From NCBI GenBank assembly GCA_032718475.1, contig JAUCBJ010000486.1, positions 1-64,000 on the forward strand: DNA of 64,000 nucleotides, written 5' to 3'. The DNA is from Nemertoderma westbladi. Taxonomy: Eukaryota; Animalia; Xenacoelomorpha. This document shows positions 26,627 to 55,025 of this stretch, one piece after another. A program made the position numbers and the translations under genes. The number at the start of each line of letters is the position of its first letter. Position 1 is the stretch's first letter. The notes below the pieces were generated by a model, which was not told the DNA's origin, did not search any database, and worked only from the letters and a program-made list of their open reading frames with translations.

Positions 26627-28055
26627 CCCCTTAACGAATTATCCCGAATAAATTCGGGTTCAAGAAAATGGATAATTCAGACTAACCCGAGTTAACTCGT
26701 GCAAACAGCTTTCTGTTGAAAACTGAAACCAAACTCGAATATAGCCGTGAATTATTTGATTGGATATCTAAAAATAGCTTACCTTAGCCAAGTGGAAAAC
26801 TTTAACAATGATATAGATGCTGATTTGTGATTGGTTTTATGATGTAAATGGATTGTTTGTGGCCTCTATGAGACACACAACTTCCAGCCCTGCAGATCAA
26901 TTTCTTATTGGTTGTGTTCCAGCAATAATAACTTAGTTAGGTACGGGTAGTTACAACAATAACATGCAGATCTATTGTATATTGGAGATTTCATTATTTA
27001 CATTCTTCATTCTTTATATTTTATCCTTTATTTGTTTTGTTACCGCACCGGTACGTTGCCAAATTACTTTTTAAAAATATAATTTTATAATATTTCTAAA
27101 TGACCCAAATCTGACCCAGTTGCTAGACCAAGGGGGCGGCCATCTTTGTCTGATAATCCTGCCCGCCTTAGCGAACGCCATTTCCCTGATATAATACCAT
27201 CCACAACGAAGAAAAATCCGACCAGAGTTTGTGTTGTTTCTTCCAAGAAGAAGGATTCCAGGGGGAAAAAGGTGCGCCGTGAATCTAAATCGTGTAAGAG
27301 CTTGGAAGTAGCTGTAATGTTGTCAAAGTTAAAAATTATTTCAAATAACTGACAATTTTGTCTGACAAACAGACAACCCTCAAATCAGTCTTACAAACAA
27401 ACGAGAAAACACACTGGACAGAAAAGTGTACAGTAAGCTTGTTTTACAAAGAGTCATTCGTGATGCAGTCCATAGATTTTCAAAAATTTCAGTAAATACT
27501 GATGTCTATACAAGCAAATGCACAGACAAACAGACCGACGGACAGACAAACAGACTTGCAGACAACTAGACGAAGAGTAAACAGATCGACATACTTCAGA
27601 ACAACTATTATAGAACTAGATGAAAGAAATGAAAATATACTGTATGTGCTTGGAAATTTTGTCATTGTGTGTAAATACAAATAGTTGCACTTTTTTTGTT
27701 TCAGAAATCGGACAAATTTTGTCGGACAACAACAGATGTACAAACAGACTTATAGTACAGACTTTAGTGTGAATTTTATTTATCAAACCAATAATTATAT
27801 GGTGCACACTTTTTTATTATTATTTTTATTTTTATATTATTTTTTCGCGAATTTACATGATTATTTCATGCACGAGTTAACTCGGGATGAGTTCTTGATA
27901 GCTTATAGAAGGCTGGATATTTCACTAAAAAATGCATATATTTTACTGGAAATATATTTTTTTTCATCCGCTAGTTATAGGCTATCGAAAATGACAATAA
28001 AAAAAATAGGTCATTTTTTGACAGGTTGCCGCTAAAAAAGTGGTTCGTTAAGAGG
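26627..28055 (+). mobile_element. Non-autonomous piggyBac relic inside B
   Basis: TTAA on both sides (26623-26626, 28056-28059); TIRs CCCCTTAACGAA / TTCGTTAAGAGG. The internal peptide RLSERHFPDIIPSTTKKNPTRVCVV..KKVRRES resembles the piggyBac transposase C-terminal Cys-rich domain. Confidence 0.85.
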
Positions 28056-28736
28056 TTAAGTAACTTAGGTAAATTAGTATTATTTGTTTTAGTGTCCTGT
28101 ACGTAACACTTCACTGAAAGCGCACCGCTTTGTGTAGTGATTACTCCCCAGAAATAATAACATTTATTTCAAACATTGACAAAACCCATTAAAAACGGGT
28201 ATATATATATTATAAATCAAATCTAACGATTTATAAATCGTAGGCCTACCATACAACCATTAGGCCTCAATATCAGTTGGATTACTGCTCAAATAACGGT
28301 AATAAAGTAAGTAAAGTAACCAAGTAACCCTAAAATTCAGAAATTCAATTATTTAAAATAATTGATATACCGGTATTCTCGATAGGCCTATTATCTTTAT
28401 TTCTATAAATTTTGGCTGAAATTATACCAGTACTTGTAATTAATTCTAGTCCAGAATTATATATACTACAAACTGTAAGTAGTATACCGGTATTCCGATA
28501 GGCCTATTATATGTTTATATATATTTGTGCTAAAATTATACCGGTATTCTGTGATAAACCTAGTCTGTAATAATAGTTATATATACTATAAGCATACCGG
28601 TATTCTAATATATTATATATCACTCTACACTGAGTAGCAGTACCGGTAATTAATTACTAGGCTAGTAGGTAATACTGAGTTACTAGACTTACTCAGACTG
28701 TAATACAGCAGTAGACATTCAACGGTATACATAGTC

Positions 28737-31700
28737 ATGTCTGATACTAAGCAGAACCTGTCAGACAGTTTATTAGATGTAACTATCTGCGACTCAGATA
28801 GAGACGTACCACTGTCTGGTCGTAAATCCAGTTCACCTCCCACTGTGAGGAAAGTCATCCCTCCAGTAGTAATAACAGAACCTAGGCTGGTCCAACATCG
28901 TAGGTCTATCATAGGCACCCGAGCTCAGGTCAAGCGGGACCAACAAGCGGCGGAACAGCAACAACCCGCTAGTCAAGAACTTATTCCTCAGCGGCCCAGC
29001 AGCTCCAGTAGTGAGGATACTGTAGAGCTGACACCCGAGAGCGGAGCAGAGATGACGGATGCGGTTTATACGGATCCCCTTCTCATCCTTCCTGCAGCCG
29101 TGCTCGCTGGGTTATTGATCGCGGTGGAAGAACACCAGATCGATTGGGCGAGAAGTCAACGGTCAACTAGAGATAGCTACGCGGGCTACACTAGTGAACA
29201 ACTGAAGTCTATTGTCGAGTCGCAATGGAACTTCCCCGGACCCGGACTCCCGTTTGATTTATCAGAAGCTGCCTGGGAAGACATACACCGGATGGGAGTA
29301 GCCAAGGAAACCATCGATCCAGCTGTGTGGAAGAGGTCCGCAGCCGGATACACACAGGGATTCTTCAGCTCTATGGAGCGAATAGAAAAGCAACTTTTTC
29401 AACAACCTCAAGGACCTCAAAAGCAGGGATCGCTGCTTTATCAAGTTAGAGAAAGAGTTCTGCGGATTAGGCTAATCTTATCCGCCTTTGAGGAGGCTTC
29501 TAAAAGAAAACAAGACACGTCGTTGCAAGTTGCCGTAAAGACTTGGTTTCAACGGGTGAGTCGCCAGGTTCAAGGAGCAGCTCAGTGGAAAGCTCAGTTG
29601 GAGGAGCGCTCAACCCATGGAGAATCAACAGACGCTACTTTTTCCCAAGTGGAAAGTGAAGCGACGGCAGAGAAACCGCATAAGAGGGATGCCATTGACA
29701 TCTATCTGTCAGACTATCAGCGTTTCGTAGGTGATGAAGAGTTGCGGAGAAGACTAGATGGGCTTAGCTCTAATAGTGAAGGAGCCCAGCGTGTGTTGGA
29801 TGCAATTGATGTGGATAGGTTAGCGGCGAACCAAGCTAAATTCGATGAACAACTCCGCATCGCTAGAGAACAAGAAGAACAAGTAAGAAAAAAACGTATA
29901 GAAGACAGAAAGATAGCAGCAGTGGCAGAGGCGGAAAGAAAAGCGACCTTGGCAGAAGCAGCGGCAGAGGCAAAAGCGGCAGCAGCAGAAGCAGAGGCAA
30001 AGGCAACAAAAGCAGCAGCAGAAGCAGAGGCAAAGGCAACAAAAGCAGCAGCAGAAGCAGAGGCAACAGCGGCAGCAGCAGAAGCAGAGGCAAAGGCAAC
30101 AGCGGCAGCAGCAGAAGCAAAGGCAGAGGCAAAAGCGGCAGCGGCAGAGATAAAAGCGGCAGCGGTGGCGGAAGCAGAACGGAGAGCATCTGAAGAGGCA
30201 ACCCAACTAGAGTTGGAAAATCTACAAGAGAGGCAAGACAACTTCAATAAACAGTTAACAGCTAGTAATATGCAGATGATGAATCGATCTACTCCCAAAA
30301 GACAGGGATATACATCATCTGAGGAAGGCGATACCACCGATACTGAAGGCAAGGGAAATAGATCTCGTCCAAGTAGACGTAAAAGAACATTCCACCGTCA
30401 GAAATTGCCTGATTTGCCTCCAGCTGTTAGAAGGCAACTAAATAACACTAACTTAGGTAGTACTGAGCCCACAGACCAAATAATTAAAATAGAAAGACTC
30501 CCTACTATAGTAGATGAGCCTGAAATAATTAGGCCTGTTCTTGAAATCACCCCTACGGTAATAGATACACCTGTGCTCCCTGAAGCTACCTATAAATTCC
30601 CTCTACATAGCACTAAGCTACCTGTGCCCCGTAGAACTGCCCGAGAGACAGTTCAGGTCCTGGACCCCGAGCAAAATATTCCGAATTTGTCGCCCGTTGT
30701 CCCTTGTCTGCCCGCTACGACGTTGGCGGATCCCGTTTCGGCGGTTGATTGGGTAGACGAGAGACGGCGGGGGATGGATATTCTCCTCGGAGAGATGAAG
30801 GAGAATCGGATACGCTCCTCCCAACAGGTCCGAGAGTTGGAAGGGACTGTCCAACATTTAAAGGGAACAGTGAGGGAAAGCAAGTTAGAGTTGCAAGAAG
30901 TGCAGCAAAATATCGCGCTAGAGCGCGATAAATTAGTAAATTTACAAAAGGGTATACCACCACCCCCTGTAACAATGTGTCAACCCGTTAGGTCTGAAGT
31001 ATCTCATGCGCAAGGTGTGGAGCCTACACGCATTTATACTGCTAGCGAAGTAGAAACTCCTATAGTGAACCCTATTAAGGGTAATTATAGACCTGTTTGT
31101 AATGATATTCCCTATGGAACTGATCATAATCCGAGGAATTTATATACCGATAACTCGATATTAAATAGCACGATGGCCCAAGAAAGTTTTACGCGTCAAA
31201 TGGCTAGAACCGAAGCCCGGCAAGCGGTAAAGGTTGGAGAGATCGTCAAGTTCAATGGAGATGAGATGAAATGGTTACCTTTTAATGAATATTACAAAGA
31301 TAACATACAGAACTCTGTACTATCTAATGGAGAAAAACTTAGATACCTCATCGAGTGCTTGGAAGGATCTCCCAAGTTAATGGCGTTAAGGTTTATTGGA
31401 CATCCAGACGGATTAAGACAAGTTTGGGATACACTAAACATCAGGTATGGTAATAGGAATAACATAGCTGGGTATTTGTATGCAAAGTTGGTAGCGCCCC
31501 GAAAGTTTATTAGCAGCGGGATTATAGAGTTTTCCGATGAAATTCAGGAGATCTGCAGACAATTAGATTGGCTAGGTAAGTCTCATGAGTATCAGAGTGC
31601 TATGGTTATTAGAGCAGTGGCTTCTACTTTGCCGAAGGGTGGAGTAGGTACACGCTGGGATAAGAAAGTGTTATATATGATGGAACAACAACAACGAGAC

Positions 31701-33824
31701 CCTACCATGGCTGATCTCATGTCATTCTTAGATAGAGAAGTGAAATTACAGCTCCTAAGGCAGTCCAGAGAGAAGACATTGGAAAACAAGGTAAGTGAGA
31801 AACCCGTTTCTAGGAGAAGGGTAACACCAGTATGTTATACCGACGACGGTGAAAGCCAAACTTCTCAAGGAGAGGACAGCGGGAAAGACACTGACAGATC
31901 TTATTATGTCAATAAATTGCCTAAAGATCAGGTAAGTAAATCCGAGTCTCGACCCAATGACAGAAGGGAACTGGTACAAAAAACCCCTCCTACGTCTCCT
32001 AAAAGAATTCAGGTGAGAAAGCCCGAGGAAAGAACAAGTGTGCACCACACAGCACATGTTAAAGTAAGTAACATCAAGCCCAAATGTGTGCTGTGCGACG
32101 GGCCCCACCGTTTAAATGCGTGTGATAAATTCCTGAGGAAATCACTCGAGGATAGACGTGAAGTCATGTGGGATAAGCGGTTGTGTTATAATTGCCTCAG
32201 ACGAGGACACCAACGGCGAACCTGTAACTCCGACGCAAGGTGTGCAAAGTGCGGCGCAAAACATCATATCTTGTTGCACACGGAATTCGAACGAAACAGC
32301 CCGAGTCAGGTAAGTGAGTCCGAACTACATGTCCAATTCAGTGATGTGAACGACACTGATCAATCTGAGATGGAAGGATTCTATACGGACGAGTTCTCCG
32401 ACCAAAACGAATCCTGTTACCTAATAAACACCACCGCAGTGTATCGAGCACTCGTGTATGAGAAAGACACAGACAGCGACCTTACCTTAACTACTTCCGA
32501 TCAACAACCATCTTGGAAAGCGCCAACTTCCAATATAGGAATCCGAGAATTTCCTGTAGTCCAGTTACGGGTCTACGGACCTCAGAAGAGCTATATAGTG
32601 AACGCCCTCCTGGACTCCGGTAGCACAGGAACATTCATCGATAAAGAACTAGCCGAAGTCATCTTTGCTGGACAACCCAAGTTCCGAACCATGCTAAACA
32701 TGTCAGGGATCATGCAGGTTTGGAATTCTACTGTAGCTGCCGACTATTATATAGGTGAGTTGTCCACCCCCCAGGACGAACTAGGAGAACATAGCATCAG
32801 GTCAGTGAAAATGGTGGCTATAAAGAACTTCGCTACTACTCAAGCAGACCTTTATAATTGGGACGAGGATGAGAGCATCCAACATCTTAACATACCTCGA
32901 TTACAGACTGATTATCCTGGAGTGCAAATACTCATCGGCCAAAACGCGCATGAGGCGCTGGAGACATTAGAGAAACGGCCTGCTCAACCGCAGCCACTAC
33001 AGACCTATGCGGTAAGAACTAGAGTAGGTTGGTACCTTACTGGACCTTCCGGTAGAACGCTCAGGGAAAGACTGCTTCAAGATCGCGTCTGCCAGATGAG
33101 TGAATGGGAAGATGATACTAGTGAGGGAGACGACCCAACTGAGGGAACACCACACTCCTCAGATAATGACAATCTTAGCTCCAATGTAGATCAATGGAGA
33201 TATTGCCCCAAGAAGTTTAATCCAACGGACATCGCTTCCAGAGGAGCAACTCCTCAAGAACTGACAGATACTATAGACCGGTTAGGTGAACCCGACTTCC
33301 TGAGTAAGGAGAATGAATGGCCTCCCCATCTTACTCCGACTGAGATTAGACCAGCCAAGGGAGCGGAGAAAGTCGAACCTGAAACCCGGACGGGTGGATC
33401 GGAGTTATTTGAACCCGGGATAGATCTGTCGGTATTACATGTTACCAGGGACGACGCCGTGGATCTGGGCCTCCCCTCCGCGAGTGGATCCTTCATGAAG
33501 ATCAGAGAGAGCGATTGGAGCTCTGGAACATCAGACGTCTCGCAGGGACTCTCACCTCTCCTGCAGAGAGCGACGGACCACTATAGCTCCTGGAATCAGC
33601 TTTGTGACGCCGTCATATACTTTGAGCGATGTTTCTATCGTCACTATTCCAGGACGAAGAGGAAACCTGGAATTGTATTCAGGATGCAGCGACTCAATCA
33701 CCCAGTCGGTCGTTTGTGTTTATCGGAAGGGAATGGAGGACTCTCCGGAAACTGTGGAAGGCAAGATTCTCTTCCCACGACCACCTCCCTAATCCTTCAA
33801 ACATCTAGGGACTCCATAACGTAA
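28737..33824 (+). CDS. gag: BEL/Pao Gag-protease polyprotein (1695 aa) fused in frame to an RNase H C-terminal remnant; RT and IN absent
   Basis: DUF1759-like IVKFNGDEMKWLPF..EKLRYL; triple Cys motif CVLCDGPH / CYNCLRRGHQRRTC / CAKCGAKHHILLH; PR ALLDSGSTGT; then QWRYCPKKFNPTDIASRG. No YxDD motif. Confidence 0.92.
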   Translation: MSDTKQNLSDSLLDVTICDSDRDVPLSGRKSSSPPTVRKVIPPVVITEPRLVQHRRSIIGTRAQVKRDQQAAEQQQPASQELIPQRPSSSSSEDTVELTPESGAEMTDAVYTDPLLILPAAVLAGLLIAVEEHQIDWARSQRSTRDSYAGYTSEQLKSIVESQWNFPGPGLPFDLSEAAWEDIHRMGVAKETIDPAVWKRSAAGYTQGFFSSMERIEKQLFQQPQGPQKQGSLLYQVRERVLRIRLILSAFEEASKRKQDTSLQVAVKTWFQRVSRQVQGAAQWKAQLEERSTHGESTDATFSQVESEATAEKPHKRDAIDIYLSDYQRFVGDEELRRRLDGLSSNSEGAQRVLDAIDVDRLAANQAKFDEQLRIAREQEEQVRKKRIEDRKIAAVAEAERKATLAEAAAEAKAAAAEAEAKATKAAAEAEAKATKAAAEAEATAAAAEAEAKATAAAAEAKAEAKAAAAEIKAAAVAEAERRASEEATQLELENLQERQDNFNKQLTASNMQMMNRSTPKRQGYTSSEEGDTTDTEGKGNRSRPSRRKRTFHRQKLPDLPPAVRRQLNNTNLGSTEPTDQIIKIERLPTIVDEPEIIRPVLEITPTVIDTPVLPEATYKFPLHSTKLPVPRRTARETVQVLDPEQNIPNLSPVVPCLPATTLADPVSAVDWVDERRRGMDILLGEMKENRIRSSQQVRELEGTVQHLKGTVRESKLELQEVQQNIALERDKLVNLQKGIPPPPVTMCQPVRSEVSHAQGVEPTRIYTASEVETPIVNPIKGNYRPVCNDIPYGTDHNPRNLYTDNSILNSTMAQESFTRQMARTEARQAVKVGEIVKFNGDEMKWLPFNEYYKDNIQNSVLSNGEKLRYLIECLEGSPKLMALRFIGHPDGLRQVWDTLNIRYGNRNNIAGYLYAKLVAPRKFISSGIIEFSDEIQEICRQLDWLGKSHEYQSAMVIRAVASTLPKGGVGTRWDKKVLYMMEQQQRDPTMADLMSFLDREVKLQLLRQSREKTLENKVSEKPVSRRRVTPVCYTDDGESQTSQGEDSGKDTDRSYYVNKLPKDQVSKSESRPNDRRELVQKTPPTSPKRIQVRKPEERTSVHHTAHVKVSNIKPKCVLCDGPHRLNACDKFLRKSLEDRREVMWDKRLCYNCLRRGHQRRTCNSDARCAKCGAKHHILLHTEFERNSPSQVSESELHVQFSDVNDTDQSEMEGFYTDEFSDQNESCYLINTTAVYRALVYEKDTDSDLTLTTSDQQPSWKAPTSNIGIREFPVVQLRVYGPQKSYIVNALLDSGSTGTFIDKELAEVIFAGQPKFRTMLNMSGIMQVWNSTVAADYYIGELSTPQDELGEHSIRSVKMVAIKNFATTQADLYNWDEDESIQHLNIPRLQTDYPGVQILIGQNAHEALETLEKRPAQPQPLQTYAVRTRVGWYLTGPSGRTLRERLLQDRVCQMSEWEDDTSEGDDPTEGTPHSSDNDNLSSNVDQWRYCPKKFNPTDIASRGATPQELTDTIDRLGEPDFLSKENEWPPHLTPTEIRPAKGAEKVEPETRTGGSELFEPGIDLSVLHVTRDDAVDLGLPSASGSFMKIRESDWSSGTSDVSQGLSPLLQRATDHYSSWNQLCDAVIYFERCFYRHYSRTKRKPGIVFRMQRLNHPVGRLCLSEGNGGLSGNCGRQDSLPTTTSLILQTSRDSIT

Positions 33825-36800
33825 CAACATATGGAGTGGGTGTGTGACTCTATTATTTTATATTATTTTATTATTTTTATATTTATGTATGTATTACTAT
33901 GTAATTCTATTATAATCGTTTTCTTTAATTTTATTCAGTAGAATGTTATTTTAGCGATTATTTTGTAGAATAGTGCAATATATATTCGCGTTTATTACTT
34001 AATTACGTATATATTATATTTAGTGCGACGGCGAAGAAATAATTATTTTTCTCTTTCCTTACTGTCCGTATTATATTATAAATACGTGACTACAGTAAGA
34101 TGAAATGTCCGTACTTATTAAAGTACAATAAAGCCACTACTATATTTAAGTATTATTGGTAGGCAGAGTATTAGGAATGCAAAGTTCAGATCCTCGTGTC
34201 TCGGCTAAACCAAGCTCTGGGTAGACCTTGGAAACGACTTGCCTCTTCACACTGACATTGCTTCGTGCGATATTGCTCTCATACCGTATATTAAATAATA
34301 CATATAGTAGCGTGATGTCCCTTTAACAGTAGCGTATAACGCAAAATAAATCTGTTAAACCCTTTGACCATCTGTAATTCTAGTCGATTAAGATATCGCG
34401 GCACCCACCGATATACTTGAAAGACAAATTCTAGAATCAGTGGTTAACGTCCCCAGACAAGTTCTGGAATAAATCGGTGCCCATCTCAAATATTAATTAA
34501 TTAATATTTGCAAAATCTAATAAATCAAAATCTGTAAAATTCAGATCCTTCAATAATTCTAGTCAATTAAGATATCGTAGTATTTACCGATATTCTTAAG
34601 AAGACAATTGTCATAGAATTAAGGATCTTGTGTCCCTAGACATGTTCTAGAATCAAAACATGTCCATTTAATTATCAAATAATAAAATTTCAGGGAATAA
34701 ATTTAAATTCATGTCTTTTAATGAATTTAATAAATTGCCATTTTTACGCAATTTATAAAGTTCCCAAAATTCCATTAATTAATAGATCAAGGGAGCGGAG
34801 ATTTATCTTATCATGCGTATGAGTGTGTGAAAGTCTCCCAAACATAGTCAATAGCCGATAAAATTCATAAAGTCATGTATAAAACAGAACATTGACTATT
34901 AAAGAATTACTATTAAATAACATCCCAGATCTGTATGCATTGGAATCACCCTAATTCTACCGCTAGCTTTGCATAATGTCACCATAGCAACAACCACGCT
35001 AGAATTAGAATTGAGTTAAAAGAACAATAGAAAACTTGTCCCATTGAATAGCATAGGGAATAAATAGCGCACTACTAGTATCCAAGGATACATAATAATA
35101 CAGTGACATTCTGGAAGGCATTGACTAACGGACAAATGGCCCGAATGTGTGTAATTTGTGACAAGTTGTGTGTGTGGTATTTGTGAGTTTATAGGTGAAT
35201 GTTACTGCTAAGGTGTGTTTACAGTAGCCAGTCGCAATCGTAAAGTAACCTAACTCTCCAAGGAAAACCTGAAGTACATCTAAGCCTTTGGGACGGACAG
35301 TCGAGTGACTTGTGCCGGTTGTCGTTGTCGTTGTGCGGCTACGTCGTTGGCGAAAGTACAGCGGCGACGACACATCGGCGCTGAGGATCTCGTACTGTCC
35401 GGGGGTTAATTGGAGTAGGCAGCGACGCTCGCTAGCCTGAATATAAACTCATTATAATATGGATAAACTCATATAGCAGATATGGTTGAGTTGATAGAAG
35501 ATGATCTTGGTATCGGGGAGCGATATACTCTACTTTTGCAAGCGTTTGTTGATAGCTTAATACGCGGTGACGTTAGTCTAACTGCTGCGGAGGACGATGG
35601 TCGTTATATCGAACCGACAATGTCCCAAGTGCAGCTCTCGCGAGAGTTGGACTATAGAAATTTCGCTGCTCGCTACACGCATTGTAATGGTATGTATATG
35701 GACTTCTTAACCATTGACCATTCTATCGATTTACACAATACGGACTATGTCGACTATATATCCTGCCCAGCGGAGTCTGAACCATAAACTGAAATTCGAA
35801 TGCGAAAATTCTATTCGAAATCGGCTCGAAAGAAAAGACATTAAAGAAACAAATAAACGCGGTAACTCCAACATATATTTGGAATTCTTGATAGAATCAT
35901 TGTAACTACAAATAAATATCATCCGCGTTTCCCCTACCAGACGTGCGTCTTGGGTATTATTACGGTAAATGCCCTAGACCTAGCCAATAAACGGAAAGAC
36001 ATAAACATCCACGGAAACGTTGTGTTAAATACAGTTGTGTTCGTTATATTTACTGGAGTTTCGAGCGAAACTTGTTTGACGTATCACCTATGCTCACTCG
36101 GCTCTAACGATCCTAGAGTAAACCTACGATCAGAGTCCCGGAATACTCGGTCAAACCTCCTCATTCCTTAGTTGGACCTCAGACCTGCGATCCTGGTGGT
36201 GTCGCGGATCCTCGCGGACGGTATTCACTGTTCAAAGATCTAGTGCTACTCTAACAATTAATCGGTAACACTCCGACAGTGATTTCTAGCTAGCCGCCCA
36301 TCTTACCTAGCCGGATTGTGACGCGGACACCTAATATCACTATCCAACCGTATGGTCGTCCCCGTTTAACGCGATACAACCCCTCATCAAGGTGAAGGAG
36401 AGCTTTGTACGAAACGAGTTAAACGCTATTCTATAAAGATCAAAAGAGAAACCTGCGTTTGTTCAGATAAACGTAAGTTATAACAGTAAGTCCAGTCGAT
36501 AAACGAATTGGCCTTATCTCAATTCGATTGGGAAATCCAGAATCTCTAAGAAGTTATTGAACTTGGACGATCCTATTCTCTGCGAGAGTTTTTGGATGAA
36601 CGTATCCAGCTACGAGCGGAGGAAAATCAGCTCGAGGAGAAGCATATCGAAACGGCAGATACCTCGACCATAAACCTACACCTTCTGATGCAATCATATT
36701 GCACCCTTCACCCAGGAGTTATGGCCCTCCTAGTAAAGTGGCTCCCCCCAAAGAGAAAAAGACTCTTGCTAGCCTCAAAAAACTGCGTAAACGCCGTCTG

Positions 36801-36885
36801 CGTAAGAAAGACTAACTGTTTAGAGTATCTTTATATTTTAGAAACTGTGATTTTGTATATTTTATAGACTTAAATCCCATTTTCT

Positions 36886-36893
36886 GGGAGTGG
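36886..36893 (+). promoter_or_regulatory. Polypurine tract of element B
   Basis: GGGAGTGG directly before the TG of the 3' LTR. Confidence 0.75.
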
Positions 36894-38116
36894 TGTAAAA
36901 GCTTTTGCTGAATTGTCCGGTTATTTTTCCTTATTTTTCCCGTAAAATACTCTGTAGTTGGTTTACCAGGCATAAAAAGGCCGTGTCCTTGCTGTACTGG
37001 TGTTTTAGCGGACATAAAAGCTATTTCTTCTGTATTTGTACTTTAGAGGACATAATCCGTAATTCCGTGACGTAAAAGCTCGATACTCTTGAAAACAGTG
37101 TCGCTACCATGACGACGGCTAGCAGCTGATATTGACACGTCGACGTTTCTTTGTTTCTCTGTTCTCTCGTTGTTCAGGTTGACCAATCAGAGCGTTTGTT
37201 ATCTCTGTGTTGGAGGTATATACAGAAACTCAGTAGTTCAGTGTTATGTTTTTGACCAGAGCCTAAGAACCGGCTTTGGCACCTCCGTGTTTTCAGTTTT
37301 TAGTCTTACACTAGTAGGTTTAATTATAAAGGGCATATATCCTTTAACTGACATACCGATCAAACTCATGGAATCACTGCTAACTGATCATACATACTGA
37401 CTGCTGAAACATTGCAAACTCATAACAATCAGTGTTCAGTTGTTGTTTTATACTGCTATTTGTTGTCGGTTATTCATTATATTTGTTGATGAATTATTAT
37501 ATTGGAATAACGAGAAATAACCCCGACACCCAATATTCTTGATATACCGAAGGTAAGAGAGAAAGGTTACAGATAAACGATTGTGACTTATGTTAAAGTG
37601 GTTTGAAGTGAATCTAATGTTATTTGATAGACCCTACATGAGTCAGTCTGTGTTCCTTTTATATGTGACTAAAATCAGTGAAGATTGGCAGATTAGTGTG
37701 CAGTATTGTGCAGCATTGTGTATGAGTGAGTCTGTTAAAGAAGCAATTCCTAAAGAATGCGCCATATATGTGAATTATAATTAAGCCATATCGTTGTGAG
37801 TAGTTTAAGTCATAACTCTGTTTATATAGATAAAGCGCCACGTCCTAAAGGAACTGTTAATATTACCGAAGGTGAATAATATTGTCAGAGATTATATAAT
37901 ACTGTCAGTCGAATAATACATTAGGCTTACATAGCAATAAAATTAAACCGTCGAACCCAATCTCCCGGGAATCCCCAGCGGGTGAATGGTCGCGCACGGA
38001 TTGGTTTCGACTAGTGTAGTGAATCAAATACTTGTCATAGACTAAAAACAGATTTAATATCTAGAAGACATCTTAATTTGGTGGGTTAAACTGCCAAAGG
38101 TCTGAAAGCGCGAACA
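36894..38116 (+). repeat. 3' LTR of element B
   Basis: Direct repeat of 23932-25154, followed by the TSD TCTTC. Confidence 0.97.
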
Positions 38117-40431
38117 TCTTCGTTTGGCTTCGATCCGAAAGGGGAGGGTGGTAAAGTCTAAAGTTCGCGGGGATGTGGAGGAGTGTGTGATGACGTAGGT
38201 CATTAAGACCGCGCAGCACGATCTTTGGTCGCAATCCCGAACATAGTGACCCATGTTCCGAGACACCGGAAGCATCCTCGGTGTTTCATTATCGCCTCGA
38301 ATCGTGGGACGAGTTCAGCAAACTGGAACTTTCTGCAGAATTCCACCTTATGTTTCTCTCCGCAGAAAAGACATAGAAGGGAGGTTGTGGTGCCTTCCCT
38401 TTCGGGTGCCCAATTCGCTAGATAACACGCCCATTCCTCGGCTGATGTCAGTTCCTCGTAGTCCTCGTCGTCGGAATCCTCGGCCATGGTGATGGCCATC
38501 GTACTCACCGGAAGGGGATGGAATCTCGGTTTCGGAGTGGGTGTCCTGCTCCTGGAGTTGTTCTCTATTCCGTCTAACTTGGAGAGACTTTGTTTGGAGA
38601 ACATTGAGTCATTTAAGGCTTCGGAGATATCATCTAGGAATGCCGACATTTCGAGGAAACTGGGATCTCGATCTGGGTGTCTGAGTCGGAGATCTACGCA
38701 TTTATACGCCCACTTGCTTTGTAGCCATCCGGGGAACTTTCGGGCAATCTGTCGGAGGTTTAGAATGTTGTTTACTTGTTCCTCCTTATTTAATGGTTTT
38801 AGAGTGTAGTAGGCATCTTTCATGGAATCCGAGAATTCCTGGATATTCTGTGGGTCCCCTAGGGATCCCGCGTCCTGTATCAGTTTCTCGAGAGTTTTAT
38901 TAATTATAGTCCCGATATTTCCGTATCTTTTGTCTAGAGTTTTCCATGCGTCATAGTATGCTTCATGAGATCCTCCCTCGAAACATTTAATGATTCGACG
39001 TGGTTTGTCGCCCAGGTATTGGGATAAATATACCAGTTTTTGTGTGTCGGTTATATCCGTTGACCCAATCTGAGCGAAGAACCATTTCTTAGGTAATCGA
39101 CGGGGTCTCCTTCGAAGGTGCGGATCTCCATCTTGGGCATGGCCAGGCGGTTTTCCAATGCCCGGATAATGCCGACGTCATCTGAACTGGAATGACTAGG
39201 AGGGTTATAGTTATTAACACTCTCTCCCATGCACGATGGATCAATGAGAGGTGGAGTTTTAATGATGACGCGGTTACGGATTTGTGGTGTGGATGTAAAC
39301 GGATTGTTGGATCGAGGGGTGGCGTCCCGTTCCGAGTCCTTTTCAGGCTCGTACTTGAGAACGCCCGGTGCCGTGGGGTTGGATGGGAAATAAGGTTCCT
39401 CATTCTTAAGCGTAACCGGTGGGGGATGGAATACCGGTGCTTGTGCCGTTAACGTAGACGATATGGTTGGCGGGAACTCGGGTTTCGGAGGTTTCGCCGC
39501 CGGTGGCGTAAATGACTTCTCTAATTCCGGGACCGGGATTGGTTCATAGTTCTGTTCTATACCCCTTTCCCAGTCCTCGTATAGTTGAAGATCCCGTTCT
39601 ATGAGTGCGGCTTCGTAGTCCGCGAGTTTCGCAATATCCGCATTCTTTTTATGGATGAGAATCACTTGGGCCTCGGCATGTTGTTTACACATTTCTGCCT
39701 CTAGTTTACGTTGTTCAGCCTCTCGTTCACGTTGTTCGGCCTGTTGTTCGGCCTCTCGTTTACGTTGTTCGGCCTGTTGTTTGGCCTCGTTTTTGCATTT
39801 CAGCTGCCAATACATCCTGTTCGATCTGCAGTTGAACATATTCGTCTTCCATTCGAGCTTTTTGGGCCAATGCCCTCTGTTCTCGTAGCTGATCTCGGAG
39901 TGGCTGACCCCCTTGAGAACTGCGCGCTGAACCGGATATCTCGCTCCTAGCGCTGGAGTGTTAGTGCCTCGAGGACCCCGTTCTCTTTCGATGAATTGCT
40001 GTCCTGGTGCTGGAGGTCCGCACCGATTCTGCGTCTGTCCTTTCAGTTCTCTTATAGTACTGTTCCTCGTAGCCTCTTACAAGGCTGAGGGTCCTCCGAT
40101 GTTGCTTCCGGAACTCGTCCAAATGTGCGATGTGTTCTTCGAGTTTGGGGTAGTTTACCTGATCCGTTGCGGGAATAAGTTCTTGATATGATTTTATCAT
40201 CCTCTCATATCGTTGTAAGATACTTCGGATATTCTGTAGCTGAGTCTGTATCTCGTTGAGGGGGGTTTCGACTCCCCTTAGTTGTTTCTCTATACGTTGG
40301 TATGCTCGAGTCACTCCGCCTTTGAGAGCTCCCAGTCGACGACCCATGTTCTTCACATTCGGCACCTCGTCGGCTCCCGAGTCTGTGTGGGGGTCCATCT
40401 CATCGGTATCAGAGACGTTATTCGTCGTCAT
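38117..40431 (-). pseudogene. gag: gag of element A, frameshifted
   Basis: Consecutive ORF pieces 39961-40431, 39051-39839 and 38203-38823 with LAMPKMEIRTFEGDPVDY (DUF1759-like), CLFCGEKH and CFRCLG knuckles. Confidence 0.9.
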
Positions 40432-40619: not shown

Positions 40620-40850
40620 TCCCTGTTAACGACTCTCTATATGTGATCTGCCGACTACGAGTTTATTAGTTCGAGTTTGTCGATTAATTAAACCACGGCT
40701 TTGTCTTAAATCAAATACCAGAGTTTCCTCGTAGTAGGTGCTGGGTAAGCACGGAGAGAGTTTGAAGAGTATTGTAGGATTCCCAACTTCCACCAGTTGA
40801 AGTTGGCCGCGTCTTATTCTCAATTTTGACAGCCTGTCAAAATTGAATCC

Positions 40851-40862
40851 CTTATTCTCAAT
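40851..40862 (-). promoter_or_regulatory. Non-tRNA primer-binding site of A, complementary to its own LTR
   Basis: Minus strand reads ..TAACA AA ATTGAGAATAAG. The 12-mer is the exact complement of CTTATTCTCAAT in the LTR (plus coordinates 41060-41071). Confidence 0.7.
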
Positions 40863-40864
40863 TT

Positions 40865-42348
40865 TGTTACCGTTATTCCCGACACCATGGGGGAAAACGC
40901 CGATGCTGGAGGCGGAACTTTTCAGACCACGGAATCCTGGCCAGTCACCGGATATTGGTAGTGGAGAAGGAATACGTTCTTAAATGCAAGATTGCGGTTG
41001 AGAAAAGTTTCATTGGTTGGATATAATCTTTAATGTAACTTCCCTACAGTTGAACCTTGATTGAGAATAAGTTGGGCTTCCCCAAACCAATATACACCAA
41101 ATATTCACAATAATATAACACGACAATATAAATCCCTACAGTACATTATTTAATTACCCACTGTTCGCTCAGATTTTAACCTAACTAATGTTCCCCAATT
41201 TTCCCTCGGTCCTAGTCTCGGTACCGTAGTGTCGGTGTCGGTCGACCCTGTTGCGTGTCCGTCCCACCCTTCCCGAACCCCGAAGGGATCGGTCATCAGG
41301 AAAGCGGTACGGCTTGGCTAAGGGTCGGTCCAGTCGGTAGACCCGGTTGCGTGTCCGTCCCACCCTTCCCGAACCCCGAAGGGATCGGTCATCAGGAAAG
41401 CAGTACAGCTTGGCTAGGGGTCTGTCATGTCGGTGGACCCGTTTGCGTGTCCGTCCCACCCTTCCCAAACCCCGAAGGGATCGGTCATCAGGAAAGTGGT
41501 ACGGCTTGGCTAGGGGTCCGTCGGTTCATCGCAGGGACCCAACCACCTAGGCTTTCCGAGTCCTTATTCAGGCTCGTAGTCGCTTCGGCAGCCGAGAAGC
41601 TGCTCCGAACAGTCGGTAGGCCAGTAGAGTCCAGTCCTTTGTCTTTCGACCCCGTTGCGTGTCCTCCCACCCTTCCCGAACCCCGAAGGGATCGGTCATC
41701 AGGAAAGCGGTACGGCTTGGCAAGGGGTCTGTCAGCCCGTTGTGAGCCCCAACGGTTGGTGGTTTTCCGAGTCCTTATTCAGGCTCGTACTAACGCCGGT
41801 CGTGGGACCCACTCCAGGAAGGCAGTCCTCGTCGAACCCTTCCTCCATTAGTCGGTCGACCCGTTCGTGTGTCCGTCCCACCCTTCCCGAACCCCGAAGG
41901 GATCGGTCATCAGGAAAGCGGTACGGCTTGGCTAGGGGTCTGTCGTCGGTTCCCGTCACAAATCCCTGACACAAGCAGCAGACTTTCCGAGTCCTTATTC
42001 AGGCTCGTAATAACTGCTGTTGGCCAGGGACCGCTAAGGGCAGTCCTTGTCCTTTAGACCTAACGAGTTACCAAATCCACCTCTACAGGCAGCAGGAAGC
42101 TGGCTAGGCCTAATAGTAATCAGGCAAACCTGAATACTGCTTAACTTTGCCTCCCACCCCTGGCCCTTAAATACATGAAATGAGTCCCGTAGTAAGTCGC
42201 CCCAATATTCGCCCATAAATCGCCCCCAGTCCATTGAATGTGCCCAAATCCCATGTTCCCGCACCCAGTAGTGATATCGGAATATTCATTTAAAATAAAT
42301 CCAAAAAATATTCAACTCGCGTTAAGAAGAGTTGAAATACCGCGAACA
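40865..42348 (-). repeat. 5' LTR of element A (1484 bp, 5 internal repeat units)
   Basis: Direct repeat of 17525-18902 with one extra 96-bp unit. ATTAAA on the minus strand at 41029-41034. Confidence 0.95.
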
Positions 42349-43239
42349 TAATCACAATGAATGTTACACTTTAATTCTACTTATTTGTATTTTGGGGCAG
42401 TAAGCATTACAAAATGCTTTAAATTCGAACTATTGCCACACCTACCGGCAACCCGTAATGACGCTAATTCGTACTATTCGAAAATTCAAAAAATCGTTCG
42501 CTTTTCTTGCGATAAAGGCTCATGCATTTTCGGCTGTTTTGGCTCCGTAAGAGTGAACTCTGTCCAGTGCAACAAAAAACACTCTTAGACTGGAACAGTC
42601 TATATCAATCTACTTAGAAACAATTCCGGTACCACAAAAGTGTATTTCATATTATAGAAGTTGGTACAAATGAGGCTGATGGAGTTGGATCAGATTTCGA
42701 GAGTCAAGGATTCGATTTTGGTGAATGTACAATAAACCAAAAAAATTAAATATGGCTAATTTTAAATTCTGATATATAGACGTGTTCTTATTTCAATCTC
42801 TGTATAGTAAAATTGATAATTTTAAATGTGGAAGGGTTTACTATGGAAGATCACCCATGGTGGTGAACAGGCATTCCTTGGCTTAACGAGCCTAAAAGGA
42901 TTCTCCCATTCATAATTTTAAATTTGTTATTTAACATTTTTAATTTTAGAAATATTTCTAAACAAGTTTAAAAAATTTAGATATCACAATTTTTATTTAT
43001 AAATTTCACTAACATATTTAGAAAAAAAAACCCTGGCATTACAGTTTTATTTTTGGTAGTAATCAGCTGTATTTGCGTCGATTTTCCCCTGGAGAGGGAT
43101 TTGCGTCTGAAGACCAGCCCCCCCCCCCCCCCCCCCCCTATCTGCTTTCGACGCAATCAAAAGTCATCCCTCTCCAGTTGGAAATTGATGAGGGTTAGGT
43201 GGAGTCACACAACAAAATGATTCAATAGAATCAGGTCTC

Positions 43240-52244: not shown

Positions 52245-53267
52245 TCACGTTGTTGTCTCTGGGGCCGGTTTCAACTCTTTTATCTGTTTAATCAAATAGT
52301 TCCGCTCATCCGTAAATTGCTCGTCGTCTGTGCGATCAGTCTGGAAATGCGACAGAAATTCAACCAACTTATCCTTATTCTTCAACAATATCTCGAGAAT
52401 CTCCTTGGATTTATTAGGATTAGCAACGAACACCTTAAAAACATGGAAGGCCTCGAACTGAATGTTTCTGGACGTGTCCCGCAACATATTCATAAGGAGT
52501 TTAAGGTTATCCGGGTTGCCTATATAGCGACTCATCGTTGTGAAGTTGTGACGATCCAATAACATCTCCCCTAGCAGCTTCAAGGATTGTCGTCGTGTCA
52601 CGTAATTATCCGATTTGACTAACTTCGTGTAATTCTCGAAAACGCGAGAGTAATTACTCAATAGAAACTCACTGCACATAACTTTATGGCGAGTGAGCAA
52701 CTCCTTGAAGGTGCTGAACGCATCAGAGGATATATCGAACGCGTTCAACTCGACATACTCGAAAAATTTATCGAAATAGGTCGAGTAAAGAATTATTTTA
52801 GCGAGGGCTTCGTAACGGCATGCTTCACGCAACATAATTCCGCAATTGAGGGCAATATCTGGGTTCTCGTAGCCGCGAATAAGTGCGAATAAAATATCCT
52901 GTTTGGTGCAAACGTACTCGACGGTTGGCTGTCTAGTACCGATCTGACGACGCAAAACGTTGTTGAAAATTTGAGCGGCATCTTTTTTGGACTCGAAATC
53001 AATTCTTTCTAAGTTTTTAATGAGGGAGGGAAGACAGTCAGTTGAGTAAAGTTCTTGAGCGAGCTGAGCCACTATTTCGCCTTGAGGTTCCTGCTCCCCC
53101 GTTCCGAAAAGTATAGCCTTCATGCCTTGAAGGCTCTTACGGACATCTTCGTTTACTCTCTCTGTTTTTTTACTATCGGGTTTATTGAGTTCAAGATAGG
53201 TCAAGGCGTCTCGTAAAGTTTTTGTGATTTCAGTGGGTGTTTTCTTGCTGCTCCCGAAGAATGGCAT
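52245..53267 (-). CDS. CAB39: Calcium-binding protein 39 / MO25, single exon, 340 aa
   Basis: Full-length hallmark sequence: [73 protein letters not shown]. Confidence 0.97.
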
Positions 53268-55025
53268 TATTTATATCTGTTATATAGTCTTTATTTATAC
53301 GATACTGCGATACCGGTACCCAGTACCGGTAACACTATGCAGTACCGGTACCGGTGCGATAGGCCTTCAGATCACTAGGCCTACTCCCTATTGCTGTGCT
53401 GTGCAGTGCAGCTGTTAGTAGCGAGTCCAGGAGTCTGCTGGACTGTACAGCTGCAGGCAAAGCGCTGCACTACAACACGGAACTGCTGAACTGTAGCGGT
53501 GAGTAGGCAGGTAGGTGGGTGAGGTATTATCAGCCTGCTGGCCTGTCACAATCTGACAGTGTTGCAGTGTTAGACTTACAACTCTGCAATCGTCTTTCAG
53601 ATATTACCGGTATGGGTATGGGGTTGTTAACCTAAGTCCGAAGTTCTAGTTGTACAGTATGATCGTATGCAAAACGGTAGCTAACGTATTTGCCTATCGT
53701 ATTTGGATCAATAGTTAATCCTATGTGCTTTACCGTTTATTAGCTTTATTATACCAGTTCTTAAACTTGTTATGATCAGCATGATATTGCTCTAGGCCCT
53801 ACTTAAATTGAGTTGCTTGGAGTCGGAAAGCTTTATTACAATACTTAGAGGCTTTTACAACCAAGTTAAACAATTATACAATGAGAGTTAATGGGATTGC
53901 GCAAAATAACGGTGTTTAATGGGCTTAAAAATAATGTAATAATTAAATTTAAAACATTAAGGGAAGGGAAAGGCATGTTACAAACTGACAAAGTGCCGGT
54001 GTTTTCTAACCAAATCAATATCTGACTTAGTGTTAAATTTTTGTGTTTTCACTTGCATGCAGTCATTTTGCGCCACTGAATGCGACTATATTGCAGTATT
54101 AAGCTACAGGAAATGGAACACTATATCCACTGGTGGACAGACCGACAGATTTCCGCTGCTACACCAGGTGTGACCAGTACGCAATTAATAAACTGCTGCT
54201 CCTTTCTCTTTTGTAGGACTTTAGGTCTAACATTCCTACAGTATTTATACATAAAGTATCACTTTCATGCATTTTTTGCATGGGCATTCTTTCTGGACTT
54301 TGTGACTAATGCATTTTTCGGTTAAGCGCAATCATCTGATGATTGAGATTTTGGCTATTGAATGGGATATAATCTTAGGCTCGATACAAGACAAGGAATG
54401 CCGGTTCGACCACTGAAAGATGAATGACATCGTTGGGCTAGACTGCAGCATTTAAAGCACTATGCAGCTATGCCCAAATAGTGCTACCCCATCTAGGGAT
54501 CGAACCAGGTCTTCCTAATTGGAAGCCCAGGAATGTAAGACCAAGCTGCTGCTTTGTCCAAGCTACCGCTTTTGTTACCGGTAGTCAATTATTATATTTG
54601 CAGAATCGATTATCCAATGCTACAATTATGGGTGCGCTGTAATAATTTTGGTAATACAGTACACTGAGCAGCTATGAATCAACAGCACATTTGTGTAGAA
54701 AATAACCTGTTAACAAAGTAATCTGTTAGCAACGTACACAAGGAACATTACGAAGCTCAGAAGCACGCTTGCAGGGCAAGGGGTGAATGCTATATGCGTA
54801 CGGTATGATGTAGATGTGGGGGGAGCCATGATAGTATAGCGATCTTAGCATACGGGTAGCACTATTATAATCAGCGTGCCTGTACAGTATCTGTAGATCT
54901 GTCGATCCGAATATTTTAACGTTAATAACTCTCCGTTAATCAAACCAAACTTGGTACATACGTAGCTTGGCAAAAGTTTCGAAATTTTACAAGTAGAATT
55001 TGTGGGGGTCCCATGATGCATGATT

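Follow-up and report, generated by a model that had tools for sequence, protein, structure and literature searches.

A doubled LTR-complementary site in a BEL/Pao retrotransposon of Nemertoderma westbladi and its putative role in self-priming

Element A, a BEL/Pao LTR retrotransposon of Nemertoderma westbladi, carries two copies of a 12-mer next to its 5′ LTR, both exactly complementary to a site within that LTR, and a complementarity of this kind is improbable by chance. The best explanation overall, which the sequence makes somewhat probable, is that the element primes its own minus-strand DNA synthesis in the manner of Tf1. Reading along the RNA strand, no TGG-type (tRNA) primer-binding site (PBS) was found close behind the 5′ LTR, the first TGG lying more than 60 nt past the LTR end; the lack of a tRNA-type site, combined with an LTR-complementary 12-mer right after the 5′ LTR, suggests that element A likely self-primes. 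Our analysis covers a stretch of 64,000 nt, referred to in its full length as the window, and uses whole-stretch coordinates throughout; no tRNA genes were found in it.

Element A and Its LTR-Complementary Site

Element A is a BEL/Pao LTR retrotransposon, with class, borders, and orientation all established (table 1). Its LTRs lie in direct orientation with TGT..ACA termini and share 98.0% identity over 1373 aligned columns; they also differ by 106 nt in length, within a 96-nt tandem repeat. A 5-bp target duplication (TAATC on the plus strand) flanks the element at 17520-17524 and 42349-42353, and contigs from other runs depart from the window exactly before 40865, the border of the 5′ LTR. 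The gag and pol open reading frames (ORFs) lie on the minus strand, which together with the LTR positions bears out the sense orientation assumed in an earlier, sequence-only reading of this DNA; they are damaged by stops and frame changes, and the element is interrupted by a nested element, B. The gag ORF (38203-39177) matches Pfam DUF1759 above the cut-off (E 7e-11), and the ORF at 21130-22017 matches Peptidase_A17 (E 7e-26, 91.6 bits with a cut-off of 22.3). Of the BEL/Pao domain series protease, RT, RNase H, and integrase, Asp_protease_2 (below the cut-off), RVT_1 (a weak match), and Peptidase_A17 occur in the expected sequence; the ORF at the integrase position (20066-20821) has no Pfam match, and a homologue search with the Pao-domain ORF returned only two distant proteins in the near-length class. 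Element A does not belong to the Tf1/sushi group, with its Ty3/gypsy chromovirus pol: Pfam places both gag and pol in BEL/Pao, so that A would work like Tf1 yet stand outside that group.

Table 1. Positions of the features of elements A and B in the window
Feature	Position	Strand	Remarks
Element A	17525-42348	minus	Degenerate BEL/Pao LTR retrotransposon; blastn LTR pair, Pfam domains
5′ LTR of A	40865-42348	minus	1484 bp; blastn pair
3′ LTR of A	17525-18902	minus	1378 bp; blastn pair
G-rich polypurine tract of A	18903-18912	minus	Precedes the 3′ LTR on the RNA strand
Putative self-primer of A	41060-41071	minus	CTTATTCTCAAT (12 nt, RNA strand); exact complement of both PBS copies
Same 12-mer in 3′ LTR of A	17720-17731	minus	
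Proximal PBS of A	40851-40862	minus	ATTGAGAATAAG (RNA strand); starts 2 nt past the 5′ LTR
Distal PBS copy of A	40813-40824	minus	Part of the 16-nt direct repeat 40813-40828 = 40851-40866
Palindrome	40820-40846	minus	Arms 40820-40832 and 40834-40846, 13 nt, 100% complementary, 1 nt between them
Spacer	40847-40850	minus	4 nt; 3′ edge of the proximal PBS
Second leader stem-loop	40783-40806	minus	8-bp stem 40783-40790 / 40799-40806, 8-nt loop
Element B	23932-38116	plus	Younger BEL/Pao element nested in A
LTRs of B	23932-25154, 36894-38116	plus	4 mismatches in 1223 nt
12-mer of B	25155-25166	plus	Directly after the 5′ LTR (0 nt); complementary to its own LTR

The match between the LTR and the PBS copies stands out from several backgrounds. 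With at most one mismatch the 12-mer occurs five times in the window, where 0.55 occurrences are expected, and none of 100 shuffles reached five; four of the five are exact, two being the PBS copies and the others lying one in each LTR of A, and the fifth, a near-match at 56121-56132 in an unrelated context, is taken as chance. An LTR complement of at least 12 nt starting 0-5 nt past the LTR end was obtained in none of 5000 dinucleotide shuffles of the LTR, and the internal sequence of A itself (7,776 nt) contains only three places with such a complement, two of which are the PBS copies.

The putative self-primer is situated 207 nt before the end of the 5′ LTR, and from the sequence we predict that it marks the start of R, where the transcript would begin. 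TATA-like motifs are found upstream of it (TATATT at 41089-41094, position -23, and AATATTT at 41099-41105, position -34) and ATTAAA downstream (41029-41034, position +37). The nearest of the TATA-like motifs is closer than usual; if transcription relies on it, the start would lie within the 12-mer. The predicted R is followed by about 145 nt of U5, and the R-U5 span from primer to PBS measures 195 nt.

Element B, which is flanked by the target duplication TCTTC, shows a comparable arrangement. Its ORF at 28704-33824 matches DUF1759, and its gag shares 28% identity with that of A over 138 aa. The 12-mer following its 5′ LTR has LTR partners at 24374-24385 and 37336-37347, differs in sequence from the 12-mer of A (neither starts with TGG), and is directly followed by a hairpin. 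A complement of 12 nt was reached by 4 of 5000 shuffles of the LTR of B, and the internal sequence (11,739 nt) holds two sites of at least 12 nt, one of them the PBS-like 12-mer. The presence of TATAAAGG just 11 nt upstream of the LTR site makes the geometry doubtful, a more canonical TATA-plus-AATAAA pair is found ~560-600 nt further on, and no long-range pairing of the 5′ end with the PBS over 780 nt was predicted in the fold of B; given these three points, the match in B may be due to chance or B may work differently.

The 38-nt Module in the Window and in Other Copies

The two copies of the 16-mer are 100% identical at a spacing of 38, and the 38-nt module that separates the one-site from the two-site arrangement consists of a hairpin and the second copy of the primer site. 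The 16-mer repeat, the perfect inverted repeat, the complementarity of both 12-mers to the LTR (100%), and the second stem had all been described in the sequence-only reading and were all recovered here; the second stem extends, by computation, to 11 nt at 91%. As RNA the palindrome is predicted to form a 12-bp hairpin with a 3-nt loop that overlaps the first 5 nt of the distal PBS, and part of its right arm, 40838-40846, also has a complement within the proximal copy, at 40858-40866. Of 200 shuffles of the 101-nt leader of A, only one matched or exceeded its folding stability (z = -3.69). The minimum-free-energy fold joins the 5′ 12 nt of the RNA to the proximal PBS, with a probability of 0.82-0.999 per pair, pairing with the distal copy has a probability of at most 0.001, and forcing the 5′ end onto the distal copy costs 4.8 kcal/mol. 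The hairpin is thus predicted to hide the first 5 nt of the distal copy, while the proximal copy would stay free and take the RNA 5′ end. The masking of part of the distal copy, as proposed earlier, is present in the predicted fold for these 5 nt. Two further candidates were set aside: a 13-nt, 85% complement between 41069-41081 and 40777-40789, of which about one such pair is expected by estimate, and a single sub-threshold Rfam match (traJ-II, E 0.5), taken as chance.

Three roles or origins had been offered for the module, namely a decoy or backup PBS, a dimerisation palindrome, and a scar of template switching. A decoy or backup fits best, judging from the fold in which the distal copy is masked and from the mismatch that is common in this copy elsewhere (see below). 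Dimerisation found no support: a retroviral DIS-type hairpin has a self-complementary loop on its stem, and the 3-nt loop of A (GGC in the window, GGG in 97-100% of the depth of other copies) is not self-complementary, although an extended duplex between two RNAs is possible. The third option is possible as an origin, but a one-step fold-back fails to reproduce the arm.

Families of this kind have a very high copy number here. We sampled copies of family A through contigs of public runs, three of which (X1, X2, and X3, from two studies) provided the contigs spanning the module, along with a more diverged run (X4). The spanning contigs cover 40783-40876 in X1, 40794-40879 and 40810-40880 in X2, and 40821-40881 in X3; they carry 3-10 other letters with respect to the window and represent several diverged versions, and the module is also present in an X4 contig ~8% diverged from the window. 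The other copies lack a TGG-type PBS, and the region is no one-off rearrangement. The duplication and palindrome are shared by several diverged versions in the three runs, but not by all copies: a minority of contigs (4, 8, and 2 in X1, X2, and X3) show a single PBS without the hairpin, the shares of the two forms being rough since depth is given as per-contig means of short contigs. In these single-PBS contigs 40828 joins directly to letters equal to the LTR start, as in the window at 17527-17539.

Variation within the module is unevenly spread. The spacer is hypervariable: each of 40847, 40848, 40849, and 40850 has substitutions, and behind 40846 some copies have 1-4 nt inserted; position 40850 reads A in 95%, 69%, and 36% of the depth in the three runs, which lengthens the proximal match to the LTR to 13 nt. 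Position 40813 reads T in 45-67% of the depth in other copies (single-PBS and double-PBS copies pooled), so that the distal copy loses its terminal pair and is weakened. The palindrome arms are nearly invariant, with only two single-contig variants, although the conserved arms could simply be young; 40832, which reads C in 97-100% of other depth and G only in the window, is a loop position, so that the hairpin stem is unchanged by C. Among the variants listed, none of at least 1% falls in 40776-40807 in the three runs. In X4 the LTR 12-mer has a variant at 41062 with which the sole visible PBS-like copy does not covary, but this copy is the distal one and the LTR/PBS covariation there is therefore uninformative.

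Proposed Self-Priming and Its Alternatives

If element A primes itself, its transcript would start at or just upstream of 41071, and the 5′ 12 nt of the RNA (41071 to 41060) would fold back onto 40862 to 40851, as in Tf1, after which a cut by RNase H would release the primer. The proximal copy would be the working site and the distal copy a decaying spare. A transfer of plus-strand strong-stop DNA to the distal copy may give rise to single-PBS copies, as may recombination between the 16-nt repeats with loss of exactly 38 nt, and the variable 4 nt that adjoin the proximal PBS on its 3′ side may reflect untemplated bases added at cDNA ends. A self-complementary PBS for self-primed reverse transcription, one of the proposals of the sequence-only reading, is the reading that best agrees with the missing TGG PBS, the exact 12-mer, and the like arrangement in B; most likely, A would extend the Tf1 type of priming to a third superfamily of LTR retrotransposons.

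We also put forward a more far-reaching joint reading, tentatively and as rather unlikely in its entirety: BEL/Pao elements here would have exchanged tRNA priming for self-priming, and A would have a two-site leader with a hairpin as selector, the spawning of single-site forms, and a spacer that bears a footprint of the process. The exchange would be independent of those in Tf1/sushi and the plant copia lineage TAR and would concern a third superfamily of LTR retrotransposons. The conserved hairpin would mask the distal copy and so direct priming by the RNA 5′ end to the proximal site, single-site derivatives would keep arising as strands are transferred between the two copies, and the hypervariable spacer would reflect untemplated bases added to plus-strand strong-stop DNA.

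The alternative that survives best, which we consider possible but doubtful, accepts that A is self-primed and assigns no role to the module: a single aberrant reverse-transcription event, a fold-back or strand switch at the PBS, would have left it as a heritable scar in the founder of a successful lineage, and the masking of the distal copy would be incidental. The layout, in which a partial inverted copy lies between two direct copies, is that of a strand-switching product, the module coincides exactly with the PBS, the place of both strand transfers, and numerous single-PBS copies exist, so that an element can reside in the genome without the module; in Tf1, cDNA ends likewise carry untemplated bases and a retained PBS (PMC11042837). 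However, folding back once on the LTR end as it stands today would yield an arm that differs after the first 9 nt; this one-step origin of the palindrome was rejected, and a scar would therefore need at least two steps. The near-invariance of the arms next to a freely varying spacer, the presence of the module in the diverged X4 contig, and the hairpin right after the PBS-like 12-mer of B also speak against a scar.

It is improbable that the 12-mers instead mediate a long-range RNA-RNA contact, either in 5′-3′ cyclisation or between two genomic RNAs, with the primer being something unrecognised. The 12-mer is also present in the 3′ LTR, which makes a 5′-3′ contact possible, such contacts are known for Ty1, and the LTR site of B appears to lie upstream of the best promoter-like motifs, so that it would be present only at the RNA 3′ end. 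Against this stand the absence of an alternative TGG-type PBS near the LTR end of A, the start of the match 2 nt (A) and 0 nt (B) past the LTR, the position required of a PBS, and the location of the LTR site of A where a transcript start is expected. Slightly less probable still is a cellular RNA, such as a tRNA fragment or another small RNA, as primer, with an incidental LTR match. Half-tRNA and internal-tRNA primers do occur in copia-type elements (PMC6317226), but this explanation would require a coincidence of ~1 in 1000 or rarer to have happened twice, in A and in B, whose 12-mers differ and in neither case begin with TGG. That the duplication and palindrome are private to the window copy or an assembly error, as the uniqueness of the perfect 13-nt arms and of G at 40832 might suggest, is refuted for practical purposes by the module-spanning contigs of three runs and two studies, and the private base sits in the hairpin loop.

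Comparison with Other Retroelements

Canonical BEL/Pao elements (Achilles, the metagenome loci L027 and L031, and others) share with A the DUF1759 gag, the Pao-peptidase domains, and LTR ends of the TGT/ACA type, but have a TGG-initiated tRNA-type PBS right after the LTR, which A and B lack. Among 80 metagenome BEL/Pao loci at least 15 have TGG-initiated motifs that are common to unrelated contexts, mostly 0-4 nt after ACA, counting only individually checked motifs since shared TGG 13-mers mostly reflect coding similarity; for L027 the LTR pair confirms that the motif begins right after the LTR. A crude scan of 55 of the 80 loci for self-complementary 12-mers after CA gave no convincing PBS; the matches in L007, L008, L026, L056, L064, and L072 had a partner outside the LTR or in pol, were of low complexity, or were short-range hairpins. 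No nucleotide similarity of the 5′ ends of A or B to 111 loci was found, and a search for the 16-mer pattern in viral contigs returned 31 single matches that otherwise resemble neither A nor B and are taken as chance. Achilles from the olive fly has a tRNA-Tyr PBS (PMC4580426), and reviews and surveys, in the sections available, either leave BEL/Pao priming undiscussed or give tRNA sites. Full-text literature searches found no report of self-priming in BEL/Pao, and a literature search for natural doubled PBSs gave nothing relevant.

Tf1 of Schizosaccharomyces pombe is the closest parallel: both it and A lack a tRNA PBS and have a complement to their own sequence beside the 5′ LTR. The self-complementary match of Tf1 is 11 nt, shorter than that of A (12 nt, and 13 nt in most copies). 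The two differ in that A is a BEL/Pao element and not a chromovirus, has its PBS doubled around a hairpin, and has the 195-nt R-U5 span between primer and PBS, its transcript start and RNase H cut being predicted. The Tf1/sushi group (Tf2, Maggy, Skippy, Cft-1, Boty, and sushi) and the plant Tcn1 clade are described as lacking a tRNA PBS, with a stretch at the transcript start exactly complementary to a site adjoining the 5′ LTR (PMC5445492, PMC6934838, PMC6317226). Most cDNA ends receive untemplated nucleotides from the Tf1 reverse transcriptase, and the PBS persists as a single-stranded end in about half of the cDNA (PMC11042837). Self-priming was also predicted from sequence alone for the Ty1/copia TAR lineage of plants (Houba, Osr-1), like A in a superfamily other than Ty3/gypsy; the accessible text (PMC6317226) reports no doubled PBS for this plant copia lineage, whereas that of A is doubled. 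Fungal GalEa elements (copia), which lack a tRNA PBS, have a Conserved Hairpin Site directly after the 5′ LTR and thus resemble A in having a hairpin in place of, or beside, a PBS; in GalEa, however, the authors found no LTR complement and the first arm is itself a palindrome abutting the LTR (PMC5445492), unlike A, where the hairpin comes after a 12-mer that has an LTR complement.

Retroviral vectors engineered with two PBSs offer two usable initiation sites in one leader, and if strand transfer makes use of one copy, the other copy and the spacer should be lost. They are artificial and tRNA-primed, whereas the two sites of A are natural and self-complementary, with a hairpin overlapping one of them.

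For Tf1, self-priming is established; among its gypsy relatives and in one copia lineage of plants it has been inferred. If it is confirmed for element A, self-priming would have arisen, or have been kept, in all three superfamilies of LTR retrotransposons, which would bear on the idea, raised in the literature, that a hairpin or self-priming preceded tRNA priming (PMC3601003). Annotation is affected too, since LTR finders built around a tRNA-type PBS as a requirement would overlook or misclassify these high-copy families, and a natural two-site leader occurring in both forms in one genome would provide a system for the choice of initiation site and for the reshaping of leaders by strand transfer.

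Borders, coding state and leader of element A

Element A carries, in its minus-strand ORFs, the Pfam domains DUF1759 in gag (E 7e-11) and Peptidase_A17, a Pao-type domain (E 7e-26), and is therefore a BEL/Pao LTR retrotransposon. On the RNA strand its LTRs start with TGT and end with ACA; they are 98.0% identical (27 mismatches in 1373 aligned columns), the 3' LTR is adjoined by a G-rich polypurine tract, and a 5-bp target duplication (TAATC as read on the plus strand) borders the insertion. Tandem repeats of 96 nt and about 211 nt occur in the U3 of the LTRs, and the 106-nt difference in LTR length falls within the 96-nt repeat because its copy number differs (3.0 in the 5' LTR vs. 2.0 in the 3' LTR). 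The element is degenerate, with gag split over three overlapping frames and pol containing one in-frame stop and one frame change, and is interrupted by the younger BEL/Pao element B between 23931 and 38117. Beyond the ORF at the integrase position lies a 353-aa ORF that may belong to element A as an additional 3' ORF; it has clusters of cysteine and histidine, and its zinc-knuckle match is no more than faint (E 0.08).

Positions of features in the window and of contigs spanning the leader module
Feature	Position	Strand	Remark
A, 3' LTR	17525-18902	-	blastn of element's two ends
A, 5' LTR	40865-42348	-	blastn of element's two ends
A, target duplication	17520-17524, 42349-42353		
A, U3 tandem repeats	41237-41944, 17897-18509		
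A, 353-aa ORF	19083-20144	-	
A, 16-nt direct repeat	40813-40828, 40851-40866		
A, palindrome arms	40820-40832, 40834-40846		13 nt each
A, LTR site of the 12-mers	41060-41071		
A, second stem	40783-40790, 40799-40806		
Contigs spanning module, X1	40783-40876, 40805-40865		examples
Contigs spanning module, X2	40794-40879, 40810-40880		examples
Contig spanning module, X3	40821-40881		example
Element B	23932-38116	+	BEL/Pao inside A; target duplication TCTTC
B, 12-mer	25155-25166		
B, LTR sites of 12-mer	24374-24385, 37336-37347		
B, hairpin	25171-25193		9 bp
B, palindrome	25201-25216		16 nt, perfect
B, repeat in long ORF	29891-30181		imperfect, 27-33 nt; alanine/glutamate/lysine-rich stretch
Satellite array	10693-14356		32-nt unit, about 116 copies, 88% matches
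Second satellite array	192-756		33-nt unit, about 17 copies
Host-type ORF	52245-53270	-	Mo25/CAB39, full-length
Host-type ORF	57458-58072	+	CSL4/EXOSC1-like exosome subunit
Host-type ORF	8040-8822	-	GDSL-lipase-like piece
Host-type ORF	16041-16880	+	PAXIP1_C-like piece
Unbroken run of at least 15 G	55900-55915		

The host-type ORFs elsewhere in the window are each single and uninterrupted; that for Mo25/CAB39 is recognized by Pfam at E 1.6e-142, and among the matches listed its best named ones are only animal, at no more than 70% identity, which marks the host as an animal. Full-length genes free of introns, in an animal genome this rich in repeats, could be retrocopies or could reflect an intron-poor host.

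Reading along the RNA strand of element A, the LTR end (ACA) is followed by AA, the 12-mer ATTGAGAATAAG as the proximal copy of the primer-binding site (PBS), a 4-nt spacer, a hairpin, the remainder of a second 12-mer (the distal copy) and a second stem-loop. The sequence-only reading had described this region as a duplicated PBS around a palindrome, and its anatomy is borne out: the 16-nt direct repeat, the palindrome, the complementarity of both 12-mers to the LTR and the further stem are all exact. No complement of at least 12 nt arose 0-5 nt past the LTR end in 5000 dinucleotide-preserving shuffles of the LTR. As a positional control, 12-nt LTR complements were counted along the internal sequence of A (7,776 nt), which has only three such sites, two of them the PBS copies; allowing up to one mismatch, the 12-mer occurs five times in the window vs. 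0.55 expected. Close to the LTR end of A there is no TGG-type site, and no Rfam family matched. Its LTR site sits 207 nt ahead of the LTR end, with TATA-like motifs upstream on the RNA strand (TATATT at -23 to -18, AATATTT at -34 to -28) and ATTAAA at +37, the sole such signal downstream; such an arrangement would be expected, we infer, of a 12-mer that opens R, which would then span ~60 nt and leave ~145 nt for U5.

For RNA running from 41071 to 40770, the fold predicts that the initial 12 nt bind the proximal PBS (probability 0.82-0.999 per pair) and that the palindrome forms a hairpin masking 5 nt at the start of the distal copy; both predictions depend on the assumed 5' end. Predicted pairing of the RNA 5' end with the distal copy has a probability of at most 0.001, and forcing it costs 4.8 kcal/mol. 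The 101-nt leader by itself has z = -3.69, with one of 200 shuffles folding equally well.

Leader forms among family A copies

Family A is found at very high depth in public DNA runs, and its copies were sampled through contigs of four runs placed on the region: one sample gave X1 and X2, and other studies gave X3 and X4. The whole 38-nt module of hairpin and second PBS copy is spanned by contigs with 3-10 letters differing from the window. Alignment of family copies, the check proposed in the sequence-only reading, thus recovered the duplication and the palindrome in other copies, beside a single-site form. Contigs of this form match to 40828 and continue with the LTR-start letters as in the 3' LTR (window 17527-17539); they have one PBS and no palindrome, and are exactly 38 nt shorter. 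This junction was found in 4, 8 and 2 contigs of X1, X2 and X3, and was seen from the opposite side in one contig each of X2 and X3. Depth drops from bin 40825-40829 to bin 40830-40834 by 33%, 21% and 29% in X1, X2 and X3, suggesting that about one fifth to one third of copies are single-site, a rough figure, as each short contig contributes a single depth value.

Only two variants, in a single contig each, affect the palindrome arms. Position 40832, the 13th pair in the window copy, is C in 97-100% of the other depth; this position lies in the loop, which leaves the RNA hairpin, of 12 bp with a 3-nt loop, unchanged. All four positions of the spacer (40847-40850) are substituted, and it receives insertions of 1-4 nt. 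An A at 40850 (95%, 69% and 36% of depth), together with the base at 41072, brings the proximal PBS match to the LTR to 13 nt, and a T at 40813, the distal copy's last base (45-67% of depth, both forms mixed), shortens the LTR match; the two copies are unequal in this match across the family A contigs. Among the variants listed, none of at least 1% falls in the second stem-loop, and none of at least 5% in X1-X3 falls in the LTR 12-mer. A 1,046-nt contig of X4, about 8% diverged from the window, has past 40811 a PBS-like copy differing at 2 of 12 positions, then the left arm and the beginning of the right arm, which indicates that the module is older than this ~8% divergence.

Probable self-priming and its alternatives

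Family A probably primes its own reverse transcription in the manner of Tf1: the transcript's first bases would fold back onto the PBS, and an RNase H cut past the duplex would yield a 12-13-nt RNA that primes minus-strand strong-stop DNA. Self-priming is established for Tf1, and the Tf1/sushi group, the plant Tcn1 clade and the copia TAR lineage of plants are inferred to share it (PMC6317226, PMC6934838, PMC5445492). Element A likely works like these systems but, being BEL/Pao, falls outside the Tf1/sushi group. With slightly better than even confidence, we picture the proximal copy as the working site, the distal copy as a masked, decaying spare, and the hairpin as holding initiation at the proximal site. 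Given two identical sites, plus-strand strong-stop DNA ending in the PBS may land on either, and landing on the distal copy would drop exactly the 38 nt absent from the minority form. The variable spacer coincides with the putative end of plus-strand strong-stop DNA; for Tf1, the RT reportedly extends most cDNA ends with untemplated bases, and the PBS reportedly stays on about half of the cDNA as a single-stranded terminus (PMC11042837). This proposed mechanism for the module draws on its anatomy and on known Tf1 behaviour. Self-priming with a masked spare is the favoured part of the earlier proposal; a DIS-like role for the palindrome in dimerisation is unsupported because the 3-nt hairpin loop is not self-complementary.

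The layout would also fit a strand switch, of which the module could be a neutral scar left by one aberrant event; we consider this unlikely, since folding back once on the LTR end as it now stands would make the arm differ beyond its first 9 nt, and since the arms are conserved beside a freely varying spacer. That the 12-mers make a long-range RNA contact instead of acting in priming is highly improbable. A cellular RNA as primer is marginally less credible again. A private rearrangement or artefact has a negligible probability and is refuted by the family contigs: as they cross the module in X1, X2 and X3, it is not an assembly error and is not confined to the window copy.

BEL/Pao relatives and nested element B

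As a contrast to the probable self-priming of family A, we examined metagenome contigs with 80 BEL/Pao loci, drawn from 107 confirmed relatives (Pao domain 25-43% identical). One TGG-initiated motif of 11 nt is common to 11 of the 80 loci (L005, L008, L011, L012, L019, L023, L026, L041, L046, L072 and L076), with 14-17 nt further alike in most of these and contexts otherwise different. It lies 2.4-3.9 kb upstream of the Pao domain in 10 of the 11 and 0-4 nt past ACA in most, and looks like a common tRNA-type PBS of the superfamily; we take this commonest motif to be of tRNA-Tyr type. A second TGG motif is common to three loci and a third occurs in one, so that an ordinary tRNA-type PBS appears to be present in at least 15 of the 80 relatives. 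In locus L027, an LTR pair puts the TGG motif at the first base past the 5' LTR; a 1.6-kb direct repeat in L031 terminates at an identical LTR-PBS junction. For Achilles, another BEL/Pao element, a tRNA-Tyr PBS has been reported (PMC4580426). Self-complementary sites were sought by a crude scan in 55 of the 80 loci, with nothing convincing.

Element B has 1223-bp LTRs with 4 mismatches; its gag is only 28% identical to that of A, and the LTR sequences are unrelated. Directly past the ACA of its 5' LTR stands a 12-mer complementary to its own LTR, a complement reached in 4 of 5000 shuffles; the internal sequence (11,739 nt) has two sites of at least 12 nt complementary to the LTR, one being this PBS-like 12-mer. 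A hairpin and then a palindrome follow; with a 5-bp stem, this palindrome would expose a self-complementary 6-nt loop, predicted to resemble a retroviral dimer initiation site. The self-priming geometry of B is less convincing, because TATAAAGG is only 11 nt upstream of its LTR site, the TATATAAT-plus-AATAAA pair is about 560-600 nt downstream of it, and pairing of the 12-mer with the LTR site is absent from the 917-nt predicted fold. With LTR-complementary sites in place of the tRNA-type sites of relatives, A and B are thus atypical within the superfamily.

Full-text searches, covering the main text of openly readable papers, yielded no report of self-priming in BEL/Pao, although an earlier mention may exist, and a term search of the BEL/Pao surveys PMC3118150 and PMC554778 gave no mention of a PBS. 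The computational evidence from two elements and short contigs points to likely self-priming of the Tf1 kind in a family of BEL/Pao elements whose two-site leader is family-wide and polymorphic.
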